Source: an uncultured Candidatus Saccharibacteria bacterium
GTDB lineage: Bacteria > Patescibacteriota > Minisyncoccia > Phycocordibacterales > UBA9988
Reading direction: 5' to 3'
NCBI GenBank assembly: GCA_964401135.1
Contig: CAYNXC010000002.1
Location: 16,457-80,456, forward strand
DNA: 64,000 bases
In this document: in pieces, positions 7,785 through 60,635 of the stretch
How positions within the stretch are numbered: position 1 is the first letter of the stretch
Layout of the letters: each line of letters starts with the position of its first letter
Notes under the pieces: model-generated
The model's input: only the letters and a program-made list of their open reading frames with translations
Database searches by the model: none
Told to the model about the DNA's origin: nothing
Translations under genes and position numbers: made by a program

Positions 7785-7861
<77 letters not shown>

Positions 7862-7867
7862 ATGAAA

Positions 7868-7905
7868 AACGCCAATACTACATTGGCGTTTTTCTGTTTT
7901 TATGG
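7868..7905 (+). terminator. Hairpin plus T-run between the two CAU tRNAs
   Basis: AAACGCCAAT-loop-ATTGGCGTTTTTCTGTTTTT. Confidence 0.35.
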
Positions 7906-7944
7906 CACTATGGGAGTCGTCAGGAGAGAGATAGAAAATGTCTT

Positions 7945-8018
7945 GCCGGGGTAGCTCAGTCGGTTAGAGCGTGGGACTCATAAACCCAAGGTCGTGAGTT
8001 CGATTCTCACCCCCGGCA
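7945..8018 (+). tRNA. tRNA-Met (CAU) elongator, or tRNA-Ile2 (LAU) precursor
   Basis: Cloverleaf GCCGGGG...CTCATAA...GGTTCGATTCT..CCCCGGCA; G1-C72 paired; anticodon loop cuCAUaa; CCA not encoded. Confidence 0.7.
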
Positions 8019-8065
8019 CGAGGTTCCTGTATATTCTTTGAGCTTTTTGCTAGGATGATGTCGTT

Positions 8066-8142
8066 GCAGATGTAGCTCAACTGGTTAGAGCACCCGCCTG
8101 TCACGCGGGAGGTTGCGGGTTCAAGTCCCGTCGTCTGCGCCA
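8066..8142 (+). tRNA. tRNA-Asp (GUC)
   Basis: Anticodon arm CCCGC-ctGTCac-GCGGG; acceptor GCAGATG/CGTCTGC; CCA encoded. Confidence 0.85.
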
Positions 8143-8223
8143 GTTCTTAATGTTTAAGGACAGCCCTAAAACATTCACCAGAGGCGAATGTTCGGGCGGA
8201 CAATTTCCATAGGAAACTGTTTT

Positions 8224-8296
8224 GCCGTTGTAGCTCAGTTGGTAGAGCAACTCCATGGTAAGGAGTAGGTCGTCGGTTCAATTCCGACCAACGGCT
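8224..8296 (+). tRNA. tRNA-Thr (GGU)
   Basis: Anticodon arm ACTCC-atGGTaa-GGAGT; resembles E. coli thrV. Confidence 0.85.
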
Positions 8297-8308
8297 CATA
8301 ACAATAAG

Positions 8309-8381
8309 GCCACCTTAGCTCAGTTGGCAGAGCGGCGCATTCGTAACGCGCAGGTCCCCAGTCCGATTCTGGGAGGTGGCT
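8309..8381 (+). tRNA. tRNA-Thr (CGU)
   Basis: GCGCA-ttCGTaa-CGCGC anticodon arm, resembles E. coli thrW; acceptor GCCACCT/AGGTGGC. Confidence 0.8.
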
Positions 8382-32503: not shown

Positions 32504-32588
32504 GGAGGGGTCGCATAGAGGCCTAGTGCGCGCGCTTGGAAAGCGCGTAAGGGTTACACCTTCGAGGGTTCGAATCCCTCCCTCTCCG
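32504..32588 (+). tRNA. tRNA-Ser (GGA)
   Basis: GGAGGGGTCGCATAG... anticodon arm CGCGC-ttGGAaa-GCGCG, long variable arm, T arm GAGGGTTCGAATCCCTC, acceptor CCTCTCC. Confidence 0.85.
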
Positions 32589-32666
32589 CACTAAGAACCT
32601 GGTAGTTTTGTGACCCAAGTACCTAAGGTTGTAGGGCGACCCAGGTACCTAGTAATTACCTGGAAA

Positions 32667-33911
32667 ATGCCCGACGAATATCGCAATCATCATTACGTAC
32701 CACAGTGGTACCAAAAGAAGTTCATGCTACCGAACGAGCATGAGTTATTTCACTTGGATTTAAAACCCGAGACGTTCACCGATCCTCGCGGCGTGGTTCA
32801 TACCAAGAAGCCATTACGGCGACAAGGTAGTAAAAAGTGTTTCGTCCAAGAGGATCTTTATACGACGAAGATTCAAGGTATCGAAACAAAGGATATAGAG
32901 AAATATTTCTTCGGCGATATTGATACCAAAGGTCGTCCTGCTGTCGAATATTTCGAGGGGTTTGATTATCCCCTTAAACCCTGGGGTGAATCACTTCAGG
33001 ACATCATGCGTTACATGAGTACACAGAAGCTCAGGACTCCGAAAGGTCTATCATTTCTTAGCGAGAAAATTGGAAGTAAGGATAAGGACGCGATTCTACG
33101 CAATATGATCCGAGTGCGTAATGTTCATGCCGCTATTTGGATGGAATGCGTCTGGCTTATTGCAGACGCTTCACAGTCGGAGACTAAATTCATCATCTCA
33201 GACCATCCCGTTACTGTTTATAATCGTGAATGCGGTCCTCGATCCAGTTACTGTCGAGACTCAAATGACCCCGAGATATGGCTTCAAGGTACGCATACAA
33301 TTTTTCCACTTTCCATAGATAAGGTTCTCATTCTCACAAATTTATCCTGGGTGCGGAATCCATATCAATCCGCAACCAATCTACGACCGAATCCAAATCC
33401 ATACCGCAATGCGATATTCAAATTTACTGACGTTCAGGTTCGACGACAATTAAGTGAACAAGAGGTACGAGAAATCAATTTCATCATAAAAAGCCGAGCT
33501 TCCCGATATGTAGCCGCAGCCAAAGAAGAATGGCTTTACCCAGAAAGACATGTATCCAAATCAGATTGGAACAAATACGGTCATGGATATCTTTTGATGC
33601 CCGATCCTCGCGCTATTCATTGGGGAGGAACCATAATGTGGGGCGGTGGCCCAGGCGGTCCAGGTGCAATGGATGAATATGGAAGACTGCCCGGAGATCC
33701 TGATTTTGAAGCAGAGACAACCAAAGGTAAGGAGTACCAAACGCTCCCTTGGTTTCAGGGAGAATTTGCAAAGCTGTTCGGTCCTTATCGCCGAGGCCGT
33801 TGTATGCAACATATTGAAATTGAAAAGGAACGGGACGATGATGAATTTCACCAGTACCATCTCGGTCTTCAGAAAAAGAGCTATAAGGAACGACACGGCA
33901 AGAAGAAATAG
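32667..33911 (+). CDS. DUF4238 family protein (track ORF from GTG 32610)
   Basis: N-terminal HYVPQWYQKKF hallmark of DUF4238; ~415 aa with C-terminal extension. Confidence 0.6.
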   Translation: MPDEYRNHHYVPQWYQKKFMLPNEHELFHLDLKPETFTDPRGVVHTKKPLRRQGSKKCFVQEDLYTTKIQGIETKDIEKYFFGDIDTKGRPAVEYFEGFDYPLKPWGESLQDIMRYMSTQKLRTPKGLSFLSEKIGSKDKDAILRNMIRVRNVHAAIWMECVWLIADASQSETKFIISDHPVTVYNRECGPRSSYCRDSNDPEIWLQGTHTIFPLSIDKVLILTNLSWVRNPYQSATNLRPNPNPYRNAIFKFTDVQVRRQLSEQEVREINFIIKSRASRYVAAAKEEWLYPERHVSKSDWNKYGHGYLLMPDPRAIHWGGTIMWGGGPGGPGAMDEYGRLPGDPDFEAETTKGKEYQTLPWFQGEFAKLFGPYRRGRCMQHIEIEKERDDDEFHQYHLGLQKKSYKERHGKKK

Positions 33912-33914
33912 TTT

Positions 33915-35225
33915 TTAGTTGGAGTCCTCTGTAAGCAGAGTAATCTTCTTATCGTTCAGCACCAATCTGCTTCTTAGATGACCCATCAGTTCACGCTTCT
34001 CAAGCGGTGTACCCTCGCGGAGTACGTATTTTGCATATTCCTTTGTCGCAATATCGTCTTCATCGATCTGCATCTTGGGCTTGCCTTTGACCGCAAGTCT
34101 CTGCAATCTATTGAATCGCTTAATTTCTTCTTCGAGCTTCATCCGCATGCCAAGCTCGTTCATGGTGAGCTTGTCGATAATCTTGAATAGTTCCTCGACG
34201 AGTTCTTCCTCGCGGATATATTTGTTCTTGCAGTTCCTGTCTCTCGCTTTCGAGCAAGAGTAGTAGACGTACTTTGCATTCGTGCCATCTTTGAGCAGTT
34301 TGTATTTCTCCTGCGCCGTGATGCCCGATCCGCACATGCCACAGGTAAATAATTTGGTGAAGGCAAACTCTCTGTTCTCGCGCACAACTTTGTCGCGCTT
34401 CAATTGCTCCTGCACTTTCTTGAATAATTCCTCGCTGATTAGCGGCTCATGTGTTCCTTGATACCAGTTGCCGCTGTTCTTTGGATACTCGAATGGTCCG
34501 TAATAAATGGGCATCTGGAGCATGCGATATACACCAGAGAGTGTGAGTGGCTTGTTACCTCGCGTATAGAAGTTAAGCTCGAAACGGAGCCAGTTGTACA
34601 CTTTTCTACCGCTCCACAAATCGTATGCCACTTTTTCAAACATCTGCTTCACGATCGGTGCACGTTGCGGATCAATAACGATACGGCATTTCTTTTCTAT
34701 CAATTTCTGGTTGAGATATCCGAGCGGCGCCATGCCCGGCCACAACCCCATCTCCACTCTCGTTCTCAAACCTCGCTTCACGTTGATGCCCCGGTTGTCG
34801 TTCTCGAGCTTCGCCTGCGATCCAAGGATCATGAGGAGGAATTTTTCATTCGGATTATTAGTAAACTTTTGTCCGTAGGTGCGTATTTCCTTGAGCTTTC
34901 CAACGTCCATAAGATCGATCACTTTGCCGAGGTCGCCTGCGTTACGGCTGATGCGATCCGGCGCCCATGTGAGGATACCGTTGTATTTGTCATCCCTAAT
35001 TTCTTCGATGATCTCGTTAAATACAGGGCGCTGGCCAGTCTCCTTGGCGGAGTGAGATTCTCGCTTCATTGTCACAACTTCCAAATTTTCTCGCTCTGCT
35101 AGCTGGAGCATCTCCTTGATCTGGGAATCGATAGAAAGCGCCTGTCGTTCCTCCGCTTCGCTCGACTTGCGGGCATACAGGCAATATCTGATTGGTTTCT
35201 GTTCCTTTACGGTTGCGTTTTCCAT
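33915..35225 (-). CDS. Large serine recombinase (resolvase/invertase catalytic domain + recombinase domain + zinc ribbon)
   Basis: Catalytic Ser context YARKSSEAEE...SIDSQ, recombinase domain, CGMCGSGITAQEK...YYSCSKARDRNC zinc ribbon. Confidence 0.85.
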   Translation of the reverse strand: MENATVKEQKPIRYCLYARKSSEAEERQALSIDSQIKEMLQLAERENLEVVTMKRESHSAKETGQRPVFNEIIEEIRDDKYNGILTWAPDRISRNAGDLGKVIDLMDVGKLKEIRTYGQKFTNNPNEKFLLMILGSQAKLENDNRGINVKRGLRTRVEMGLWPGMAPLGYLNQKLIEKKCRIVIDPQRAPIVKQMFEKVAYDLWSGRKVYNWLRFELNFYTRGNKPLTLSGVYRMLQMPIYYGPFEYPKNSGNWYQGTHEPLISEELFKKVQEQLKRDKVVRENREFAFTKLFTCGMCGSGITAQEKYKLLKDGTNAKYVYYSCSKARDRNCKNKYIREEELVEELFKIIDKLTMNELGMRMKLEEEIKRFNRLQRLAVKGKPKMQIDEDDIATKEYAKYVLREGTPLEKRELMGHLRSRLVLNDKKITLLTEDSN

Positions 35226-35349
35226 GCATACACGAACATACCGGATACGGGTACGAAGTCTAGCCGCATACGAAACACAGAGCAGAAGCGGGAGGAAGTC
35301 AACTACACAAAAATCCCGAGGGAAGCTAAGGTCTTTTAGGGGGTGAGAA

Positions 35350-35562
35350 TTAAAAACTAATGAGATTGTTCACTTTAAGCCCTAGTGCTTTGGCGATCTT
35401 CTCCATGTTGGTGAGTGTAATGTTTTTCTCGGCACGTTCAATCATACCGATGTATGTCCTGTGGACTTTAGCCAACTGCCCTAAGCGCTCTTGAGAAATA
35501 TCGCGTTTCAGTCGTTCTTCTCGGACTCTTTTGCCAAATTGTATGAGAATAGTCTTGTTCAT
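35350..35562 (-). CDS. XRE-family HTH transcriptional regulator (Cro/CI-like)
   Basis: 70 aa, HTH_3 pattern LSQERLGQLAKVHRTYIGMIERAE. Confidence 0.8.
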   Translation of the reverse strand: MNKTILIQFGKRVREERLKRDISQERLGQLAKVHRTYIGMIERAEKNITLTNMEKIAKALGLKVNNLISF

Positions 35563-35661: not shown

Positions 35662-36514
35662 TAAAATTGAGAACAATATTCATGAATAAAATCTTTAAAA
35701 GACTACTCGTATTTGCGGTACTATTTGCTCTTACTTCTTCGAATGTTTTTGCTGCAACTAAAACCTGGGACTTTTCCACTTCGTCGGACTACACTTTTGA
35801 TACTACTAAAATTGAAGTCATAGGAGGACAAGCACAATTGAAAGCTACAACAACTCCTGCTTGGTATGACACCAGTTGGAAATATAGAAAGAAAATATCA
35901 ATTGACCATACAAAAATATCGTCAGATTTAACAGATTTTCCTGTTCTCGTTAATCAAACTTCTGACTCAGACTTGGCAGCCAAAGCGTTAACGTCAGGTA
36001 ACGATATATTTTTCACTTCATCTGATGGAGTTACAAAACTAAGCCACGAAATAGAGACATATGCATCAACAACAGGAGCTTTAGCTGCATGGATTAAAGT
36101 TCCTACAGTATCCTCTTCTGTAGATACTGATGTTTATATGTATTATGGTAATGCTGCAGCTTCTGCTCAAGCGAATGCAAATGGAGTATGGGATAGTAAT
36201 TCAATTGTTGTTCAACATCTTAATGCTACTACTAGCCCAGCACTAGACTCAACATCTAATGCGAATAGTGGAGTTCAGTCTGGAGGAGTTACTTTCAGTG
36301 CAACAGGCAAGATAGGTAATGCTGTGAGCATGGACGGTGTTAATGACAAACTATCCTTAACAAGTAATAGTGGCTTAAACGCAACAGGCACCCTAAGTAT
36401 TAGTGCATGGGTAAATAGAACTGCATCGGGCAAGATGAGGGTAGTTGCAAAAACAGTTACTACTGGAACAACTGACAACCCATATGATTTTGGTATAAAT
36501 ACGGATAATACACT

Positions 36515-36522
36515 TTATTTAA
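36515..36522. repeat. 8-bp target site duplication TTATTTAA (left copy)
   Basis: Identical octamer abuts the outer ends of both terminal inverted repeats (right copy 39496..39503). Confidence 0.75.
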
Positions 36523-36548
36523 GGGAACTATATACAATGTTACCCTAA
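36523..36548. repeat. Left terminal inverted repeat of IS
   Basis: gggaactatatacaatgttaccctaa. Confidence 0.75.
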
Positions 36549-36551
36549 AAA

Positions 36552-37085
36552 TTAATTAGATTTTGGTTTGTCTAAATCTTCCAAAGAAAAGCCCAGGTCA
36601 GGAAAAATAAGATTTCTTAGATAAATACTCCCTGCAAAAAGAACGGTATTAATATCAACTCCAGACTGGAAAGCCCCTTGTTTGAGTGATTCTACAACAT
36701 CAGGACAATGTATTGGTAACTCCATCATTATCTCGGATATTACTTTCTCTGCATCATAAGGATTAGTCGTATTTTTACTTTGAACTAATTTTAGAAGTTC
36801 GTCTTTTTTTGCGTCAATAATTTCTTTAATTCCGCTATCATCTAAGATAGCTTGCCCTCTTGAGTTTAATTGTCGTGGAGAATTAGCAGGTGCAATTTTG
36901 TCTTTCCATAGAATATCCAGTTTAGGGAACATATCTGCCACTTTGGGTTTAATGTCTTTAATATCTTCCAGCATAAAATTTGTTCTTTCATCAATCCTCG
37001 CAATCAATTCACGAGTATTACCCAACAGGATAGCAGAAATCCAGTTACCTGCTTTTTTGGCTAAATTAAGGGCTTGTTGTTCCAT
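36552..37085 (-). CDS. Hypothetical protein (177 aa), passenger gene of the IS element, reading outward through the left IR
   Basis: ORF inside IS boundaries; no recognisable family. Confidence 0.5.
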   Translation of the reverse strand: MEQQALNLAKKAGNWISAILLGNTRELIARIDERTNFMLEDIKDIKPKVADMFPKLDILWKDKIAPANSPRQLNSRGQAILDDSGIKEIIDAKKDELLKLVQSKNTTNPYDAEKVISEIMMELPIHCPDVVESLKQGAFQSGVDINTVLFAGSIYLRNLIFPDLGFSLEDLDKPKSN

Positions 37086-37197
37086 AGGATTATTACATTA
37101 CTAGTATATCAAAACGGCTGTTGCAAGTTAATACTAGTCAAAAAGTTACCCCCAATTATTACTTGACAACCCTATTGTGATCGTATAAGCTATAGGT

Positions 37198-38115
37198 ATG
37201 GATAGCCGATACAAAACCTTGGTAGAGTTCCTCGCCCACTTTAAGGATGAGGAAACCTGTCAAAAATACTTTGAGCAAATCCGCTTCTCCCAAGGCGAGT
37301 ATTGCCCTCATTGTAACCACAGTAAAATCAACCGCTTTTCAGACGGCAAACGCTTTCGCTGTGCTAAGTGCAAAAAGGACTTCACTATTAAGACCAAGAC
37401 CGTCTTTGGCGAAAGCAAAATCTCAATGCAGAAATGGTTTGTCGCAATTTACCTTTTGTCCGTCAATAAGAAAGGCATTAGCTCTATTAACCTAGCCGAG
37501 CAAGTGGGCGTTACTCAAAAGACCGCGTGGTTTATGGATCATCGTATTCGTAAAGCCTTGAAACAAAATAGCGGTCAGTTGTTTGGCACAGTAGAAATAG
37601 ACGAAACCTATATCGGCGGCAAGGAAAAGAACAAGCACGCCCACAAGCGAACCAAGCGCACCCAAGGCCGAAACACTTTGACCAAAACCCCTGTAATGGG
37701 AATGATACAGCGAGGCGGTGCAATGAAAGCCAAAGTGATAGATAATGTAAAGATGCGAACCTTGGAAAGTCTGATTATTGAAAATGTAAAAATTGGGACA
37801 CAGCTCTACACAGACGAGTTTTTGTCTTACTCCAAAATCGGCAGTCTCTTTGCTCACGAGGCCGTGTCACACGGCAAAGGCCAGTATGTAAAAGGTGATA
37901 GCCACTCCAACACCGCCGAGAGTTTTTGGGCATTGTTTAAGCGTGGCTACTACGGCACTTACCACAACATGAGTAAGAAGCATTTGCAGAAGTATGTGGA
38001 CGAGTTCGTGTATCGCTTTAACAACCGAGCCGTGGAGCTAGCCGATGTATTCACTGATGTCGTGGCGAATGTAGCGGGTAGCGAGAAGCTGGCTTATAAG
38101 ACTCTTACCGCTTAA
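37198..38115 (+). CDS. IS1595-family (ISXO2-like) DDE transposase with N-terminal zinc finger
   Basis: CPHCNHSKINRFSDGKRFRCAKCKKDFT zinc ribbon; ISXO2-like transposase core. Confidence 0.85.
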   Translation: MDSRYKTLVEFLAHFKDEETCQKYFEQIRFSQGEYCPHCNHSKINRFSDGKRFRCAKCKKDFTIKTKTVFGESKISMQKWFVAIYLLSVNKKGISSINLAEQVGVTQKTAWFMDHRIRKALKQNSGQLFGTVEIDETYIGGKEKNKHAHKRTKRTQGRNTLTKTPVMGMIQRGGAMKAKVIDNVKMRTLESLIIENVKIGTQLYTDEFLSYSKIGSLFAHEAVSHGKGQYVKGDSHSNTAESFWALFKRGYYGTYHNMSKKHLQKYVDEFVYRFNNRAVELADVFTDVVANVAGSEKLAYKTLTA

Positions 38116-38116
38116 T

Positions 38117-39025
38117 ATGTCCCCACGAGAACGCAAATATCACGAGGGGTTAGGGGTAGACTTTAATCAAGCTCTTGTCTCTATTGCTGGTGAGAACCGA
38201 ACCGAGCGGAGTATCGCCGCCCGACCATTTCTAAAGTGGGTCGGTGGCAAGCGGTCAATCCTGCCAGAGCTTCTAAAGCGGTTGCCGACCAAGTATGACG
38301 CTTACCATGAGCTGTTTCTAGGCGGTGGTGCGTTGTACTTCGCCGTCCAGCCAGAGGAGGCTTATCTGTCTGATGTAAACTTCCACCTCATCCTTACTTT
38401 CAAGGCGGTGCGAGATGATCTGGACAGCTTAATCCGTCAGTTAAAAATCCACGAACGATTACACAACAAGGAATACTATCTCAAAGCTCGCCAGAAGCTC
38501 TTTAAGGAAAAGGACACCACCAAACTGGCGGCTCTCTTTATCTACCTCAATAAAACTTGCTTCAATGGTCTTTACCGAGTAAACAAGGGGGGTGGCTTCA
38601 ATGTCCCGATGGGCGACTACAAAGACCCAAACATTTTAGACGAGGAAAATCTGCGTAATGCTTCAAAGGTTTTAGCGACCGCCGAGATTAAACAGCACGG
38701 CTTTGAGCATACCAAAATCTACAAAGGCGACTTCTACTATCTTGACCCGCCCTATCACGAAACCTATAGCGGTTATGATGGCTCTGGCTTTGGCGATGAA
38801 CACCACCGCAAGCTCGCCGAGTTCTGCAAACAGATAGACCAAAAGGGCAGTTACTTTATGCTCTCCAACAGCGACACGCCATTTGTCAGAGAGTTATATA
38901 AGGGCTATACTATTGAGCAAGTAGAGGCTTCACGAAATGTCTCTTGCAAAGCCCACCAGCGAGGCAAAGAAAATGAGCTTATCATCCGAAACTACACCAA
39001 TAACGGGGGGCGGACAAGCCAATAA
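38117..39025 (+). CDS. DNA adenine methyltransferase, D12 class (Dam/DpnM-like)
   Basis: Motif I FLGGGALYF, catalytic DPPY (YYLDPPYHETYSGYDGSG); start 1 nt after transposase stop. Confidence 0.85.
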   Translation: MSPRERKYHEGLGVDFNQALVSIAGENRTERSIAARPFLKWVGGKRSILPELLKRLPTKYDAYHELFLGGGALYFAVQPEEAYLSDVNFHLILTFKAVRDDLDSLIRQLKIHERLHNKEYYLKARQKLFKEKDTTKLAALFIYLNKTCFNGLYRVNKGGGFNVPMGDYKDPNILDEENLRNASKVLATAEIKQHGFEHTKIYKGDFYYLDPPYHETYSGYDGSGFGDEHHRKLAEFCKQIDQKGSYFMLSNSDTPFVRELYKGYTIEQVEASRNVSCKAHQRGKENELIIRNYTNNGGRTSQ

Positions 39026-39473
39026 AACGGGCAGTGTTTTAGAGCTATTTATCAAGCGACTTTTAGAGGACAACGGCTACACCGCCTTTCCTAACCACAA
39101 AGCCCAGCTATTCGCCAATCGTAAAACTGTCGGTGGTAAGCAATACTCTACCCAAGTTCCTTGTGGTACGAGTATCTACGAAACCCAGCGTAAATGCGAC
39201 TTCTTGATCATGAACCAAGACAAGTTCCCCGATGGACTGGTGATTGAGTGCAAGTGGCAACAGTCTACTGGCTCGGTAGACGAGAAGTACCCTTTTACCT
39301 TGTTTAACATCATCAAGATCGGCGTGCCAACCATCATTCTGCTGGACGGCAACGGCTACAAAAAGGCGGCGATGAAGTGGTTAAAAGACCAAGTGAACCC
39401 ACAGAGAGCCTTAATCGGCGTTTACAATATGGCCGAGTTTCAAGCTATGGTAAATAAGGGGTTTTTAGGTTAG
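38973..39473 (+). CDS. Small PD-(D/E)xK nuclease, putative restriction endonuclease partner of the MTase (track ORF from 38937; start uncertain)
   Basis: CDFLIM...LVIECKWQ (D...E-x-K) core; overlaps MTase 3' end in another frame; stop codon lies within the IS right IR. Confidence 0.5.
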   Translation: MSLSSETTPITGGGQANKTGSVLELFIKRLLEDNGYTAFPNHKAQLFANRKTVGGKQYSTQVPCGTSIYETQRKCDFLIMNQDKFPDGLVIECKWQQSTGSVDEKYPFTLFNIIKIGVPTIILLDGNGYKKAAMKWLKDQVNPQRALIGVYNMAEFQAMVNKGFLG

Positions 39474-39495
39474 GGTAACTTTGTATATAATTCCC
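39470..39495. repeat. Right terminal inverted repeat of IS
   Basis: ttagggtaactttgtatataattccc. Confidence 0.75.
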
Positions 39496-39503
39496 TTATT
39501 TAA
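39496..39503. repeat. 8-bp target site duplication TTATTTAA (right copy)
   Basis: Matches 36515..36522. Confidence 0.75.
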
Positions 39504-42190
39504 ATCGTGCAGATTCAAGTGTTGTAAATTTTCTATCAAGTTCAACAACTGTACCGACAAATTCATGGACAAAAATTGAAGTAATTGATGACACTGTCGT
39601 TAAAAGTGCTTTCAACAGCGTCTCAAAATTAGTCACCCTAGCGACATCTACAAGAGCGTGGCAGGGGGTAGCAAGTGATGGGACTTATATCTATGCAATT
39701 GGACAAAATGCTATTTCGCAGTTTGATATGCAAGGTAATTTTATAAAAGAAAAGAATAATGTATACAGTGGTTTTACTGGTGGCAACATCCTAGGTAATG
39801 GAACAGTAATTAATGGAAAGTTATATGTCGGGGCATATAATGCGAATACTTTAGGAGCGTCAACAAATCCTAATTACACTCCGTTATCAGATCTTCAATC
39901 AAAAATTGCTGTCTTTAGCCTATCTGATTTTTCATTAATTGAAGATTTTAACCTTGGTACTCAAGTAAAAATTGCTGAGGGTGTTGATTATCACAATGGT
40001 TACTTTTGGGTAGTTGATGGATGGTTTGATACTTTCGTCGTAAAAAAATACGATACTAGTTTTAATTTAGTCTCTACGTATAGCTTGCCTGTAGCAAATG
40101 CTTTCGCTGGAGAATTAACATACCAAAATATTAATTGGTATGGGAATGACATTTTTGTTAATTGGCATGGCTCAAATTCTTTTGGACAAACCTATGCTTA
40201 TGGGTTGGATCATTATTCTTTTGACGGAACAAATTTTAATTTTGTAGAACGATTAAGACCAGTAACATATGGTGCAGGTCAAGGTATTGCAATTGTCGGA
40301 AATACGTTTTATTGGGCAGATAGACCTGGAAATGCGATCTACAAATCAACATATGTTGGAGCTGGAAATGGTGATGATGGTATTGATCCATCACATACAA
40401 AATTTTTCATAAATGGAGTTGGTGAGCTTGCTCATGTAAGTACTGGCTCTCTCACTGTGCTTTCACCTACAAGTAATACCAGTCCAACGGTTATTGGAAC
40501 TAGGGGCGATTCAAGTAGTTTTTATAAAGGTGTCATAGATGAAGTTCGAATTTCAAATGCGGCAAGATCAGATGCATGGGTCTCGGCAAGTTACGCCAAT
40601 GAAAACTCACCAAGTACATTCTATTCGATGGGTTCGGAACAAAAAAATTATGCAGCTACTAACCCGACTGTTAATCCCACATCATTAAATGCGCAAGCCT
40701 TCTCATCCCTGTCAGGCTTTTCAGCAGTTGAAGTAAGTAATGGAGGAAATATAAAGTATCAAGTTTCAAATGATGGAGGAACCACATGGTATTGGTACAA
40801 CTCTGGCTGGAATACAACAACTTCAGGATACTCTGAGACAAATGCATCTTCAACTATAAATACAAATATCGCTTCTTTACCTGTAGGAAGTGGATCATAC
40901 TTATTTAAAGCATATTTAAATTCTGATGGAACGCAGCAACCTCAGATAGACAGTGTGGTGCTCACATACTCTGCGCCACTTGATATTACAGCTCCTATTA
41001 TATCTGCGATAGCGTCTTCTACATCCCAAACTTCAGCAACTATTACCTGGACGACCGATGAATCAGCCACATCAACGGTAAATTATGGTCTTAACACTTC
41101 ATACGGTACAGCGTCATCCTCATCATCTCTCGTTACCTCTCATTCGATATCCTTGTCAGGATTAACCGCATCAACCGCATACCATTTCCAAGTAGCATCA
41201 GCTGACGCTTCTGGAAACGTTGCAACTTCTTCAGACTATACATTCACCACAACAGCAGTGCCTGACACAACGCCTCCGGTCATTTCATCAATTTCTTCCG
41301 GTTCACTTTCAACTTCAGGAACAACTATAACTTGGACCACTGATGAAGCTGCGGATTCCCAAGTTAACTACGGCACAAGTGCCTCATATGGATCACAGAC
41401 GACCCTTGATTCAACACTAGTGACGAGTCACTCCATTGTAATTTCAGGTCTTTCTGCAGGAACGACGTATCACTACCAAGTAGTGTCAAAAGATGCTTCT
41501 GGAAACACAGCTACATCTTCTGACCAAACCTTTACCACTTCAGCACAGCCTTCGAGCGGGGGTTCATCAAGCGGATCATATTCCGGAGGAGGCTCAATCC
41601 TTATCCAACCTTCTGTGCCGGGCTGTCCTACAGGATTCAATTGTGTAGTAAATCCAACCCCTACCATTTTACCAAATACTTTTACTCGTGATCTCACCAT
41701 AAAAAGTACTGGTAGTGATGTGAAGGTATTGCAGCAGTTCCTGATCGCTAAAGGCTTTCTTGCGAGCGGCAATGACACGGGATACTTTGGTCCTCTGACG
41801 CAAGCTGCTCTCGCGCAATACCAGCTTTCGATGGGTATTAAACCATCGGTTGGATATTTCGGCTCACTTACTCGTGCAGTCATTGCTGTCTCGCAGAACA
41901 TATCACCTACTACTCCATCAATATCAACAAATCCGACGGTACTTCCAAGCACGTTTACTCGAGATCTGTATTTCGGCATGAGTGGAGACGATGTAAAACT
42001 CTTGCAAAAGTTCCTTAATGACCATCAATTTATAGTCAGCCAAACTGGCGCAGGATCTCCAGGACTTGAATCAAATTATTTCGGCCCAGCCACCCGAGAC
42101 GCCCTTATTCGTTTTCAGACTTACAATCACATAGTCCCTGCAGTAGGGTATTTTGGTTCGCTTACACGCCAATTCGTAAATGGTCAGTAG
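39504..42190 (+). CDS. 3' portion of the IS-disrupted surface protein gene: LamG C-terminal part, two Fn3 domains, Ser/Gly linker, two C-terminal peptidoglycan-binding (PG_binding_1-like) domains; first in-frame ATG at 39728
   Basis: Frame stays open from 39491 upstream of the ATG (…LNRADSSVVNFLSSSTTVPTNSWTKIEV…); GVIDEVRISNAARSDAWV LamG end; TWTTDE...TYHYQV Fn3 x2; GYFGPLTQAALAQYQ PGBD x2. Confidence 0.7.
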
Positions 42191-57275: not shown

Positions 57276-57485
57276 GGCCTCAATGTCTATAGGGTATCAA
57301 CTAATGTTCAAACGGCGATGAGCTAGAGGGATATGTCTGGTGCTCGAGAGCCGCTTGAACGAAGCGGATTTTTTTACCCCAGCGACAGAAGACTTTCTTT
57401 GAAAACTGAATAGCAGGTAACATCTGTAAAGAGAATTAGAATTGTAAGAGAAAGATGATGTAAAGATTTCCTAATAGGAAATGGC

Positions 57486-60474
<2,989 letters not shown>

Positions 60475-60529
60475 TAGGAAACCTCTACATCATTTATCGT
60501 TCTCTTCACTCTGATCTTCTGTATTTTGT

Positions 60530-60635
60530 TCTGGTGGTTTGGTGGAGGGGTCACACCCGGCTCCATTCCGAACCCGGCAGTTAAGCCCTCTAGCGCCGAT
60601 GATACTCGTAAGGGGAAAGTAGGTGACCGCCAGAA
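60530..60635 (+). rRNA. rrf: 5S ribosomal RNA
   Basis: TCTGGTGGT...CCGAACCCGGCAGTTAAGCCCTCTAGCGCCGATG...GACCGCCAGA with helix I pairing. Confidence 0.75.

Follow-up and report, generated by a model that had tools for sequence, protein, structure and literature searches.

The IS1595 family of insertion sequences (ISs) was reportedly defined by Siguier, Gagnevin and Chandler in 2009. Two of its transporter ISs (tISs), tISCpe8 and MTnSag1, have 25-bp terminal inverted repeats (TIRs) and 8-bp duplications (PMC5704250). The element analysed here, which is of the same general kind, lies at positions 36523 to 39495 of a 64,000-nucleotide stretch of DNA from an uncultured Candidatus Saccharibacteria bacterium (assembly GCA_964401135.1, contig CAYNXC010000002.1, positions 16,457 to 80,456 of the forward strand); this whole stretch is referred to below as the window. 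The element is inserted in a gene for a surface protein, and its transposase gene is followed by genes for a Dam-family N6-adenine DNA methyltransferase (MTase) and a PD-(D/E)XK nuclease. An original prediction, made from the letters of the window, had described it as an IS1595-family composite element with a Dam-like restriction-modification (R-M) cargo.

R-M genes in a transposon-like setting have been described before. Furuta, Abe and Kobayashi (2010) reported single instances of R-M units that resemble transposons in having inverted repeats and 8-bp duplications, among them a Type IIG unit of Neisseria gonorrhoeae with 26-bp inverted repeats, an 8-bp target-site duplication (TSD) and a COG3677 transposase-like gene that is likely an inactivated derivative, and a Type II unit of Xanthomonas oryzae with 65-bp inverted repeats and an 8-bp TSD (PMC2853133). 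The same authors cite the 2009 IS1595 paper for R-M or MTase genes associated with IS elements, and what the IS literature states on R-M passengers is given here as cited in PMC2853133 and PMC3467074. A second precedent concerns regulation, since the host Dam enzyme methylates promoter elements of IS10 and IS50 and limits transcription of their transposases (PMC4265352, citing Roberts 1985 and Yin 1988). The general kind of element, an IS1595-family tIS or a transposon-like R-M unit, is therefore already known; the clade described here is apparently undescribed, as no description of it, of a transposase-Dam-nuclease operon or of the promoter GATC was found in the literature, recent papers on horizontal transfer and methyltransferases in Candidate Phyla Radiation (CPR) bacteria included.

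The reading that we favour, with a probability of roughly 0.8, is that of an autonomous IS1595-family tIS which heads a transposase-Dam-nuclease operon between 26-bp TIRs, with a putative GATC-specific R-M system and predicted control by methylation. The part of this reading that concerns structure and mobility, namely that an IS1595-family tIS moves a Dam/PD-(D/E)XK R-M pair, is very likely; the enzymology is put forward with less confidence.

The ends of the element were recovered by sequence extraction exactly as first proposed, with 26-bp TIRs that differ by two mismatches and a perfect 8-bp repeat flanking them. TIR-L (36523-36548, plus strand) reads GGGAACTATATACAATGTTACCCTAA, and the repeat finder, a script and a pattern search agreed on it; TIR-R (39470-39495, minus strand), whose reverse complement is GGGAATTATATACAAAGTTACCCTAA, matches TIR-L at 24 of 26 positions. 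The left copy of the TSD (36515-36522) and the right copy (39496-39503) have the same letters, TTATTTAA. Between these boundaries the element measures 2973 bp and holds four open reading frames (ORFs). With up to three mismatches allowed, a degenerate TIR pattern was found at exactly two sites in the 64-kb window, which are the two ends of this one element, and had no matches in 100 shuffles. When the TIR sequence was sought at other loci it was found there as well, the family consensus GGGAAYTATATAC...TACCCTA being present in more than 40 related elements.

The interrupted gene (35667-42190, plus strand) codes for a surface protein that is secreted and contains repeats as well as DUF2341 and LamG-like domains. 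In-silico removal of the element together with one copy of the TSD fuses a 293-aa ORF, which enters TIR-L, with the downstream ORF, giving an uninterrupted reading frame of 1180 aa that starts with a hydrophobic, signal-peptide-like stretch. In a pairwise alignment, a LamG-domain protein of Ca. Paceibacterota aligns without a break over the excision junction. Pfam did not detect a LamG domain over this junction and matched DUF2341 alone. Given the exact TIRs and TSD, the restored 1180-aa ORF and the alignment over the junction, the insertion into the surface-protein gene is real and occurred by DDE transposition with an 8-bp duplication; the perfect TSD, the intact ORFs and the lack of any further stop in the 1180-codon host gene indicate that it is recent.

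With one transposase gene, one pair of TIRs and three passenger ORFs, the element is a tIS. The label of composite transposon, under which it had first been placed, had to be dropped because a single transposase gene lies between a single TIR pair and no second IS copy flanks the cargo. In having one IS1595-type DDE transposase, TIRs of approximately 25 to 26 bp, an 8-bp TSD and passengers within the TIRs, it resembles tISCpe8 of Clostridium perfringens and MTnSag1 of Streptococcus agalactiae (PMC5704250). Unlike those elements, which carry lincomycin-resistance and mobilisation functions, the present clade, whose hosts are CPR bacteria and their phages, has an MTase-nuclease (M-R) operon in translational linkage with the transposase gene, and a second cargo slot of variable content.

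The transposase (37198-38115, plus strand, 305 aa) has an N-terminal zinc ribbon (PF12760, E=6e-11) followed by a DDE domain that covers positions 1-153 of the 153 positions of PF12762 (E=9e-44), and it scores 199.6 bits against NF033547 (E=6e-59, cut-off 75). Across 75 relatives, residues C36, C39, C55, C58, D135, D206, E241 and K248 are conserved, and the window transposase retains them along with every other near-invariant residue of that alignment. A zinc ribbon joined to an ISXO2-like DDE domain, TIRs within the 20-40 bp range and an 8-bp target duplication are thus found together, and with the transposase profiles and the excision ORF they all agree with the proposed IS1595-family element in a surface-protein gene. 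The start of the TIR (GGnnATTAT, as GGGAAYTAT) and the DDEK signature may resemble those of the ISNwi1 subgroup of ISfinder.

The MTase gene (38117-39025, plus strand, 302 aa) starts 1 nt after the transposase stop codon, as had been noted originally. Its product is a D12-class enzyme that matches the Dam family TIGR00571 (E=3e-85, 286 bits, cut-off 115), PF02086 (E=6e-60) and PADLOC MTase_II (E=2e-88). The gene for the PD-(D/E)XK nuclease, a putative type II restriction endonuclease, follows at 38973-39473 on the plus strand and matches PF20472 (PDDEXK_11, E=3e-38). That it overlaps the 3' end of the MTase gene held up, the overlap being 53 nt; its start, first placed at 38937 (178 aa), is probably at 38973 (166 aa), because homologues are 164-169 aa long, 38973 is preceded by a GAGG and the publicly called gene has 166 aa. 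The stop codon of the nuclease lies inside TIR-R, here and in all other copies. The 1-nt gap between transposase and MTase genes, the 53-nt overlap between MTase and nuclease genes and one conserved promoter upstream of the transposase gene fit the single transcript that had been suggested. A promoter-like sequence, TTGTCA-17-TATACT (10/12 match), was also seen inside the MTase gene at 38883-38911, approximately 60 nt before the nuclease gene starts, and might allow that gene to be transcribed separately; such sites are no more numerous in the region than expected by chance. As to content, the profiles agree with the cargo proposed at the outset, an ISXO2-like transposase, a D12 MTase, a PD-(D/E)XK nuclease and an outward-reading 177-aa gene.

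A metagenome scan with the transposase yielded at least 534 confirmed relatives. Of these loci 80 were fetched, along with 8 from IMG/VR (88 loci, designated by L numbers), the four window proteins were mapped onto all of them, and complete elements were found by anchoring on the TIR start motif. Nuclease homologues of 83-89% identity were found in transposase-MTase-nuclease triads on other contigs, each triad being bounded by like TIRs and by its own perfect 8-bp duplication. Wherever the contig reaches, transposases 56-87% identical to that of the window have the MTase and nuclease genes directly downstream, and the basic M-R element is 2.37-2.45 kb in length. Most complete relatives have perfect 8/8 duplications. 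Thirteen M-R elements with perfect 8/8 TSDs (that of the window and those of L007, L009, L010, L015, L017, L018, L025, L030, L041, L043, L050 and L055) are each on a different contig, at AT-rich sites and with 12 different TSD sequences, which bears out the proposal of a transposable M-R unit. Precise excision restores long ORFs in other copies as well, of 515 aa in L007, 357 aa in L015 (reverse-transcriptase-like) and 633 aa in L018. The AT-rich TSDs across the family suggest a target preference. Two different M-R elements, at L015 (907-4283) and L030 (132-3271), share the same 8-bp duplication, ATAATTTT, and the gene interrupted in L015 has the YCDD motif of a reverse-transcriptase-like protein.

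Identity to the window proteins co-varies among the three genes (n=22), with r=0.89 for transposase and MTase, r=0.88 for transposase and nuclease, and r=0.96 for MTase and nuclease, so the unit has long been moving and diverging as a whole. One clear module swap was seen at L010 (4107-6532), where the transposase is 67%, the MTase 79% and the nuclease 85% identical to those of the window, suggesting that elements have exchanged the M-R module by recombination. Several copies are on phage-like or IMG/VR contigs, and one adjoins a terminase gene in a phage that was seen in more than 20 contigs. The host range is essentially CPR, because nearly all named protein sources are Ca. Paceibacterota, Minisyncoccia, Colwellbacteria or "Patescibacteria group"; names are attached only in some public sources, and two of four GTDB loci are titled "uncultured Gammaproteobacteria". 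The window element is thus one member of a clade that is abundant in CPR/Patescibacteria metagenomes and on phage contigs, and in which transposase, MTase and nuclease genes move as one piece. Like the units of Furuta, Abe and Kobayashi, whose insertion was shown by comparison with empty sites, these elements have R-M genes between imperfect inverted repeats and an 8-bp duplication. Those units were isolated cases, their transposase was degenerate or absent, and there was no sign of a radiating family. The present elements have an intact transposase, hundreds of transposase relatives and at least 33 Dam-carrying members; here the M-R genes have diverged together with the transposase, and the pair, a Dam enzyme with a small PD-(D/E)XK nuclease, is of another R-M type.

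The Dam and nuclease genes very probably form a type II R-M pair. An MTase gene is adjacent to a gene for a separate endonuclease, whose D...ExK motif is invariant among homologues and intact in the window, and the closest neighbours of the predicted nuclease structure are type II restriction enzymes. The Dam gene always precedes the nuclease gene, and the pair is kept in every context examined, with or without a transposase; it was found without one on an Alicyclobacillus plasmid. A Dam and PF20472 nuclease pair without a transposase was also seen at L107 (3157-4530), in a 208-kb chromosomal contig, with a promoter-like sequence of its own and a 13-nt TIR-R remnant just past the nuclease stop; this pair looks like an immobilised derivative.

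The pair is probably specific for GATC. It resembles DpnII/MboI systems in that the MTase is of the Dam family (TIGR00571) and its partner is a PD-(D/E)XK nuclease, here one that weakly matches the C-terminal half of the DpnII family, and differs from them in that the nuclease is approximately 166 aa long, as against the 278 positions of the DpnII profile, and belongs to PF20472. Membership of the DpnII family itself (PF04556) was considered and set aside, as the match (E=5e-4, positions 142-265 of 278) scores 19.9 bits and the gathering cut-off is 23; the nuclease is filed under PF20472 and is DpnII-like at most. No sequence relatives of the nuclease were found in GenBank phages.

Upstream of the transposase gene, the motif ACTTGACAACCC is found in almost the entire family, and promoters were compared by anchoring elements on it, so the counts that follow cover motif-bearing elements. 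In the window this family-conserved operon promoter (37161-37191, plus strand) has a -35 of TTGACA at 37163-37168, a TGATC at 37178-37182 (GATC at 37179-37182) and a -10 of TAAGCT at 37186-37191. A GATC at offset +18 from the -35 motif is present in 33 of 33 distinct Dam-carrying elements, as compared with 1 of 27 relatives without Dam; among contigs that end just past the transposase gene, 2 of 5 motif-bearing elements carry it. The lone exception without Dam, L097, has as cargo a 271-aa protein of no recognised family and a 185-aa protein that is PIN-like by eye. The profile of the 33 Dam elements is that of a sigma-70-type promoter, TTGACA-N17-TAnnnT, with TTGACA, TGATC and the -10 T, A and T all conserved at 100%. 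TGATC occupies spacer positions 10-14 and is invariant, and the neighbouring spacer positions are almost without information. In non-Dam relatives such as L073, L074 and L085, a CCCTA-N6-TAGGG palindrome stands where Dam carriers have TGATC. The palindrome half-site resembles the inner TIR sequence TACCCTAA and, as a speculation, may be an operator for the transposase.

The GATC thus lies inside the core promoter of the transposase gene, between the -35 and the -10, and in this the elements are like IS10 (Tn10) and IS50 (Tn5). Unlike IS10 and IS50, where the Dam enzyme is that of the host and the GATC is in the -10, these elements encode the methylase themselves, in the same operon, and have the GATC in the spacer at approximately -19 to -16, an arrangement known here from sequence. 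The simplest reading is that the IS carries its own Dam and regulates its transposase-M-R operon with it. The co-variation of GATC and Dam also gives independent, circumstantial support to GATC as the target of the MTase. That the promoter GATC mediates control by self-methylation is nevertheless a tentative proposal, to which we give a little less than an even chance.

Under the proposed mechanism, the MTase would methylate GATC and the nuclease would cut unmethylated GATC, resulting in a defence and addiction function that could stabilise insertions. The element's own MTase would also methylate or occupy the GATC in the operon promoter, so that the transposase, MTase and nuclease genes would be expressed strongly from DNA that is unmethylated or has just been replicated, and weakly after full methylation of the GATC. 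When the element enters a naive cell, as it might on a phage genome, or when its DNA has just been replicated, the promoter, being unmethylated or hemimethylated, would become active, leading to a burst of transposition and to establishment of R-M, after which full methylation of the promoter would silence the transposase.

A number of findings weigh against the reading of a mobile R-M unit under its own methylation control. As regards mobility, some M-R copies (L024, L026, L027, L047, L051, L053 and L102) do not have a perfect TSD. The window element is present as a single copy in the window, with identical proteins on one other contig, at the same locus, which bears on the present-day activity of this copy. 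As regards enzymology, the match of the nuclease to PADLOC REase_II is marginal (E=0.0055), no characterised member of PF20472 was found, and no sequence relatives of the nuclease were found in the PDB. The window shows no avoidance of GATC (240 observed, 249 expected), and the GATC specificity would follow from Dam-family membership, a weak DpnII match below cut-off and the promoter co-variation. As regards the promoter, a generic promoter scan did not call the transposase promoter of the window copy, because its -10 matches at 3 of 6 positions only, and rules for CPR promoters are not established. Finally, on a quick neighbour-joining tree the Dam carriers are largely one clade, so that the contrast of 33/33 with 1/27, like the raw Fisher P of 4e-12 for the association, overstates the independence of these related sequences; true co-variation would be supported by two or three nested losses only on this tree.

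This last point opens the way to an alternative in which the element is a mobile R-M unit and the promoter GATC is an inherited, lineage-specific promoter or operator feature with no role in methylation control; the GATC could then belong to a protein-binding site that replaces the CCCTA-N6-TAGGG palindrome. Shared ancestry within what is essentially a single clade explains much of the 33/33, the palindrome at the same spot in non-Dam relatives means that the spacer is regulatory whether or not it is methylated, and L097 has the GATC and no Dam cargo. On the other hand, TGATC is conserved at 100% over transposases that are 56-87% identical, with the neighbouring spacer nearly random, and the three elements nested within the clade that are without M-R genes (L048 and the pair L039/L052) are also without the GATC. 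GATC is moreover the exact site expected of a TIGR00571 Dam-family enzyme, and Dam control of IS promoters has a precedent (PMC4265352). We consider this alternative unlikely, while giving it some weight.

It could also be argued that the window copy is a dead relic, a genuine IS insertion that no longer transposes or restricts and whose cargo is decaying. It is a single copy, with identical proteins at the same locus in one other assembly only, its TIRs differ at 2 of 26 positions, and its -10 is weaker than in sister copies. Imperfect TIRs are, however, usual among sister elements with perfect TSDs. All four ORFs are undamaged and, measured against their profiles, complete, the catalytic residues of transposase and nuclease are in place, the TSD is perfect, and no further stop has arisen over the 1180 codons of the host gene, all of which makes a relic improbable.

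Least probable, and doubtful from several sides, is the view that the nuclease is an accessory for second-strand cutting like TnsA of Tn7, itself a nuclease of restriction-enzyme fold, or a MutH/Vsr-like nickase that acts with Dam, with no true R-M involved: the nuclease is not needed for transposition, because related transposases, some of them nested in the clade, give perfect TSDs without it (L039, L048, L052, L063 and others), the constant order of MTase then nuclease with overlap, even where there is no transposase, is the signature of an R-M pair, and the top structural neighbours are type II restriction enzymes while the weak sequence matches are to the DpnII family and not to MutH or TnsA.

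In the favoured reading of a tIS moving an M-R pair, the window copy differs from the basic unit in being approximately 560 bp longer, the extra DNA lying between TIR-L and the conserved promoter. This DNA holds ORF177 (36552-37085, minus strand), a 177-aa passenger gene that reads outward toward the left end. Its place in the cargo stood in so far as it is present and outward-reading; it is an extra passenger, absent from the basic 2.4-kb elements. ORF177 was accordingly rejected as an integral part of the unit, being absent from all other M-R elements fetched. Searches of Pfam, NCBIfam, PHROGs and PADLOC gave no match to ORF177. Among its 138 homologues, those with a source name are from Ca. 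Paceibacterota and Patescibacteria metagenome-assembled genomes. An AlphaFold2 model (mean predicted local distance difference test, pLDDT, of 84) has a 60-residue N-terminal helix followed by a confident all-alpha C-terminal domain, and no fold match to it was found. In some homologues, a hydrophobic N-terminus that looks membrane-spanning by eye replaces the amphipathic helix. A promoter-like site, TTAACT-17-TATACT with a TG (37103-37131, minus strand), is placed to drive ORF177; it comes from a consensus scan in which sites were no more numerous than in shuffles.

The ORF177 family is cargo in three elements, those of the window, L063 and L081. In L063 (5903-6415) and L081 (652-1218) the ORF177-family gene is carried by IS1595 relatives that lack the M-R pair, one such gene being downstream and the other upstream of the transposase gene. 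In four GTDB genomes, homologues stand alone among unrelated host genes, with no mobile-element genes by eye, and no transposase, MTase or nuclease gene within 8 kb and no credible TIR was found around them. We infer that ORF177 is a secondarily acquired passenger, probably with its own promoter, in a variable slot; from its association, a defence-related or membrane-associated role would be a guess. A vestigial inner TIR between ORF177 and the transposase gene was also considered and rejected, since the 10-nt match AAAGTTACCC near 37143-37152 fails to extend when compared with the left ends of sister elements; we take it to be fortuitous or to belong to the regulatory region.

Extra DNA was found in the same slot of other M-R elements (L015, L030, L047, L050 and L051), and sister elements without Dam have other cargo in that slot or downstream of the transposase gene. 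In L033 (3524-6811), L035 (273-3560) and L094, genes for an EcoRI-like nuclease (PF02963) and an N6_Mtase (PF02384) are found upstream of a transposase that is 66% identical; as this R-M type is unrelated to the first, the IS clade has captured R-M systems at least twice. The cargo of L071 and L077 is a STAND/AAA_16 NTPase (PADLOC PDC-S59), that of L076 is a protein with Schlafen AlbA_2 and HATPase_c_4 domains, and DUF5343 (PADLOC PDC-M34A), DUF3800 and DUF5655 proteins are found among L052, L068, L083 and L057. The broader proposal, that the window element is a self-contained epigenetic transposon and that its IS clade serves as a dedicated shuttle of defence genes in CPR bacteria, covering two R-M types, STAND NTPases, Schlafen-domain proteins and the ORF177 family, is possible and somewhat on the doubtful side.

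Elsewhere in the window, a large serine recombinase gene (33915-35225, minus strand) and an XRE-type helix-turn-helix gene (35350-35562, minus strand) are directly upstream of the interrupted surface-protein gene. The region 32504-35562 also holds a DUF4238 gene, with a tRNA gene at 32504-32588, and may be an integrated element or island. The 23S and 5S rRNA genes and a cluster of five tRNA genes are found at 57477-60635 and 7785-8381; the 23S match is 2997 nt long against a model of 2925 positions and may contain a small insertion.

The mobility of R-M systems is a long-standing question on which the evidence is mostly indirect, the few transposon-like R-M units being single cases with doubtful transposases. 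With an intact transposase, many independent insertions with clean TSDs, co-diverging cargo and carriage by phages, the clade described here opens the movement of a whole R-M unit by transposition to direct testing. That Dam and the promoter GATC are so strictly associated suggests a methylation switch that the transposon supplies for itself. The analysis also flags an uncharacterised family of small restriction enzymes (PF20472) and the recurrent ORF177-family passenger. Genome-reduced CPR bacteria are mostly without CRISPR, and these elements point to a route by which such bacteria may acquire and exchange defence genes.

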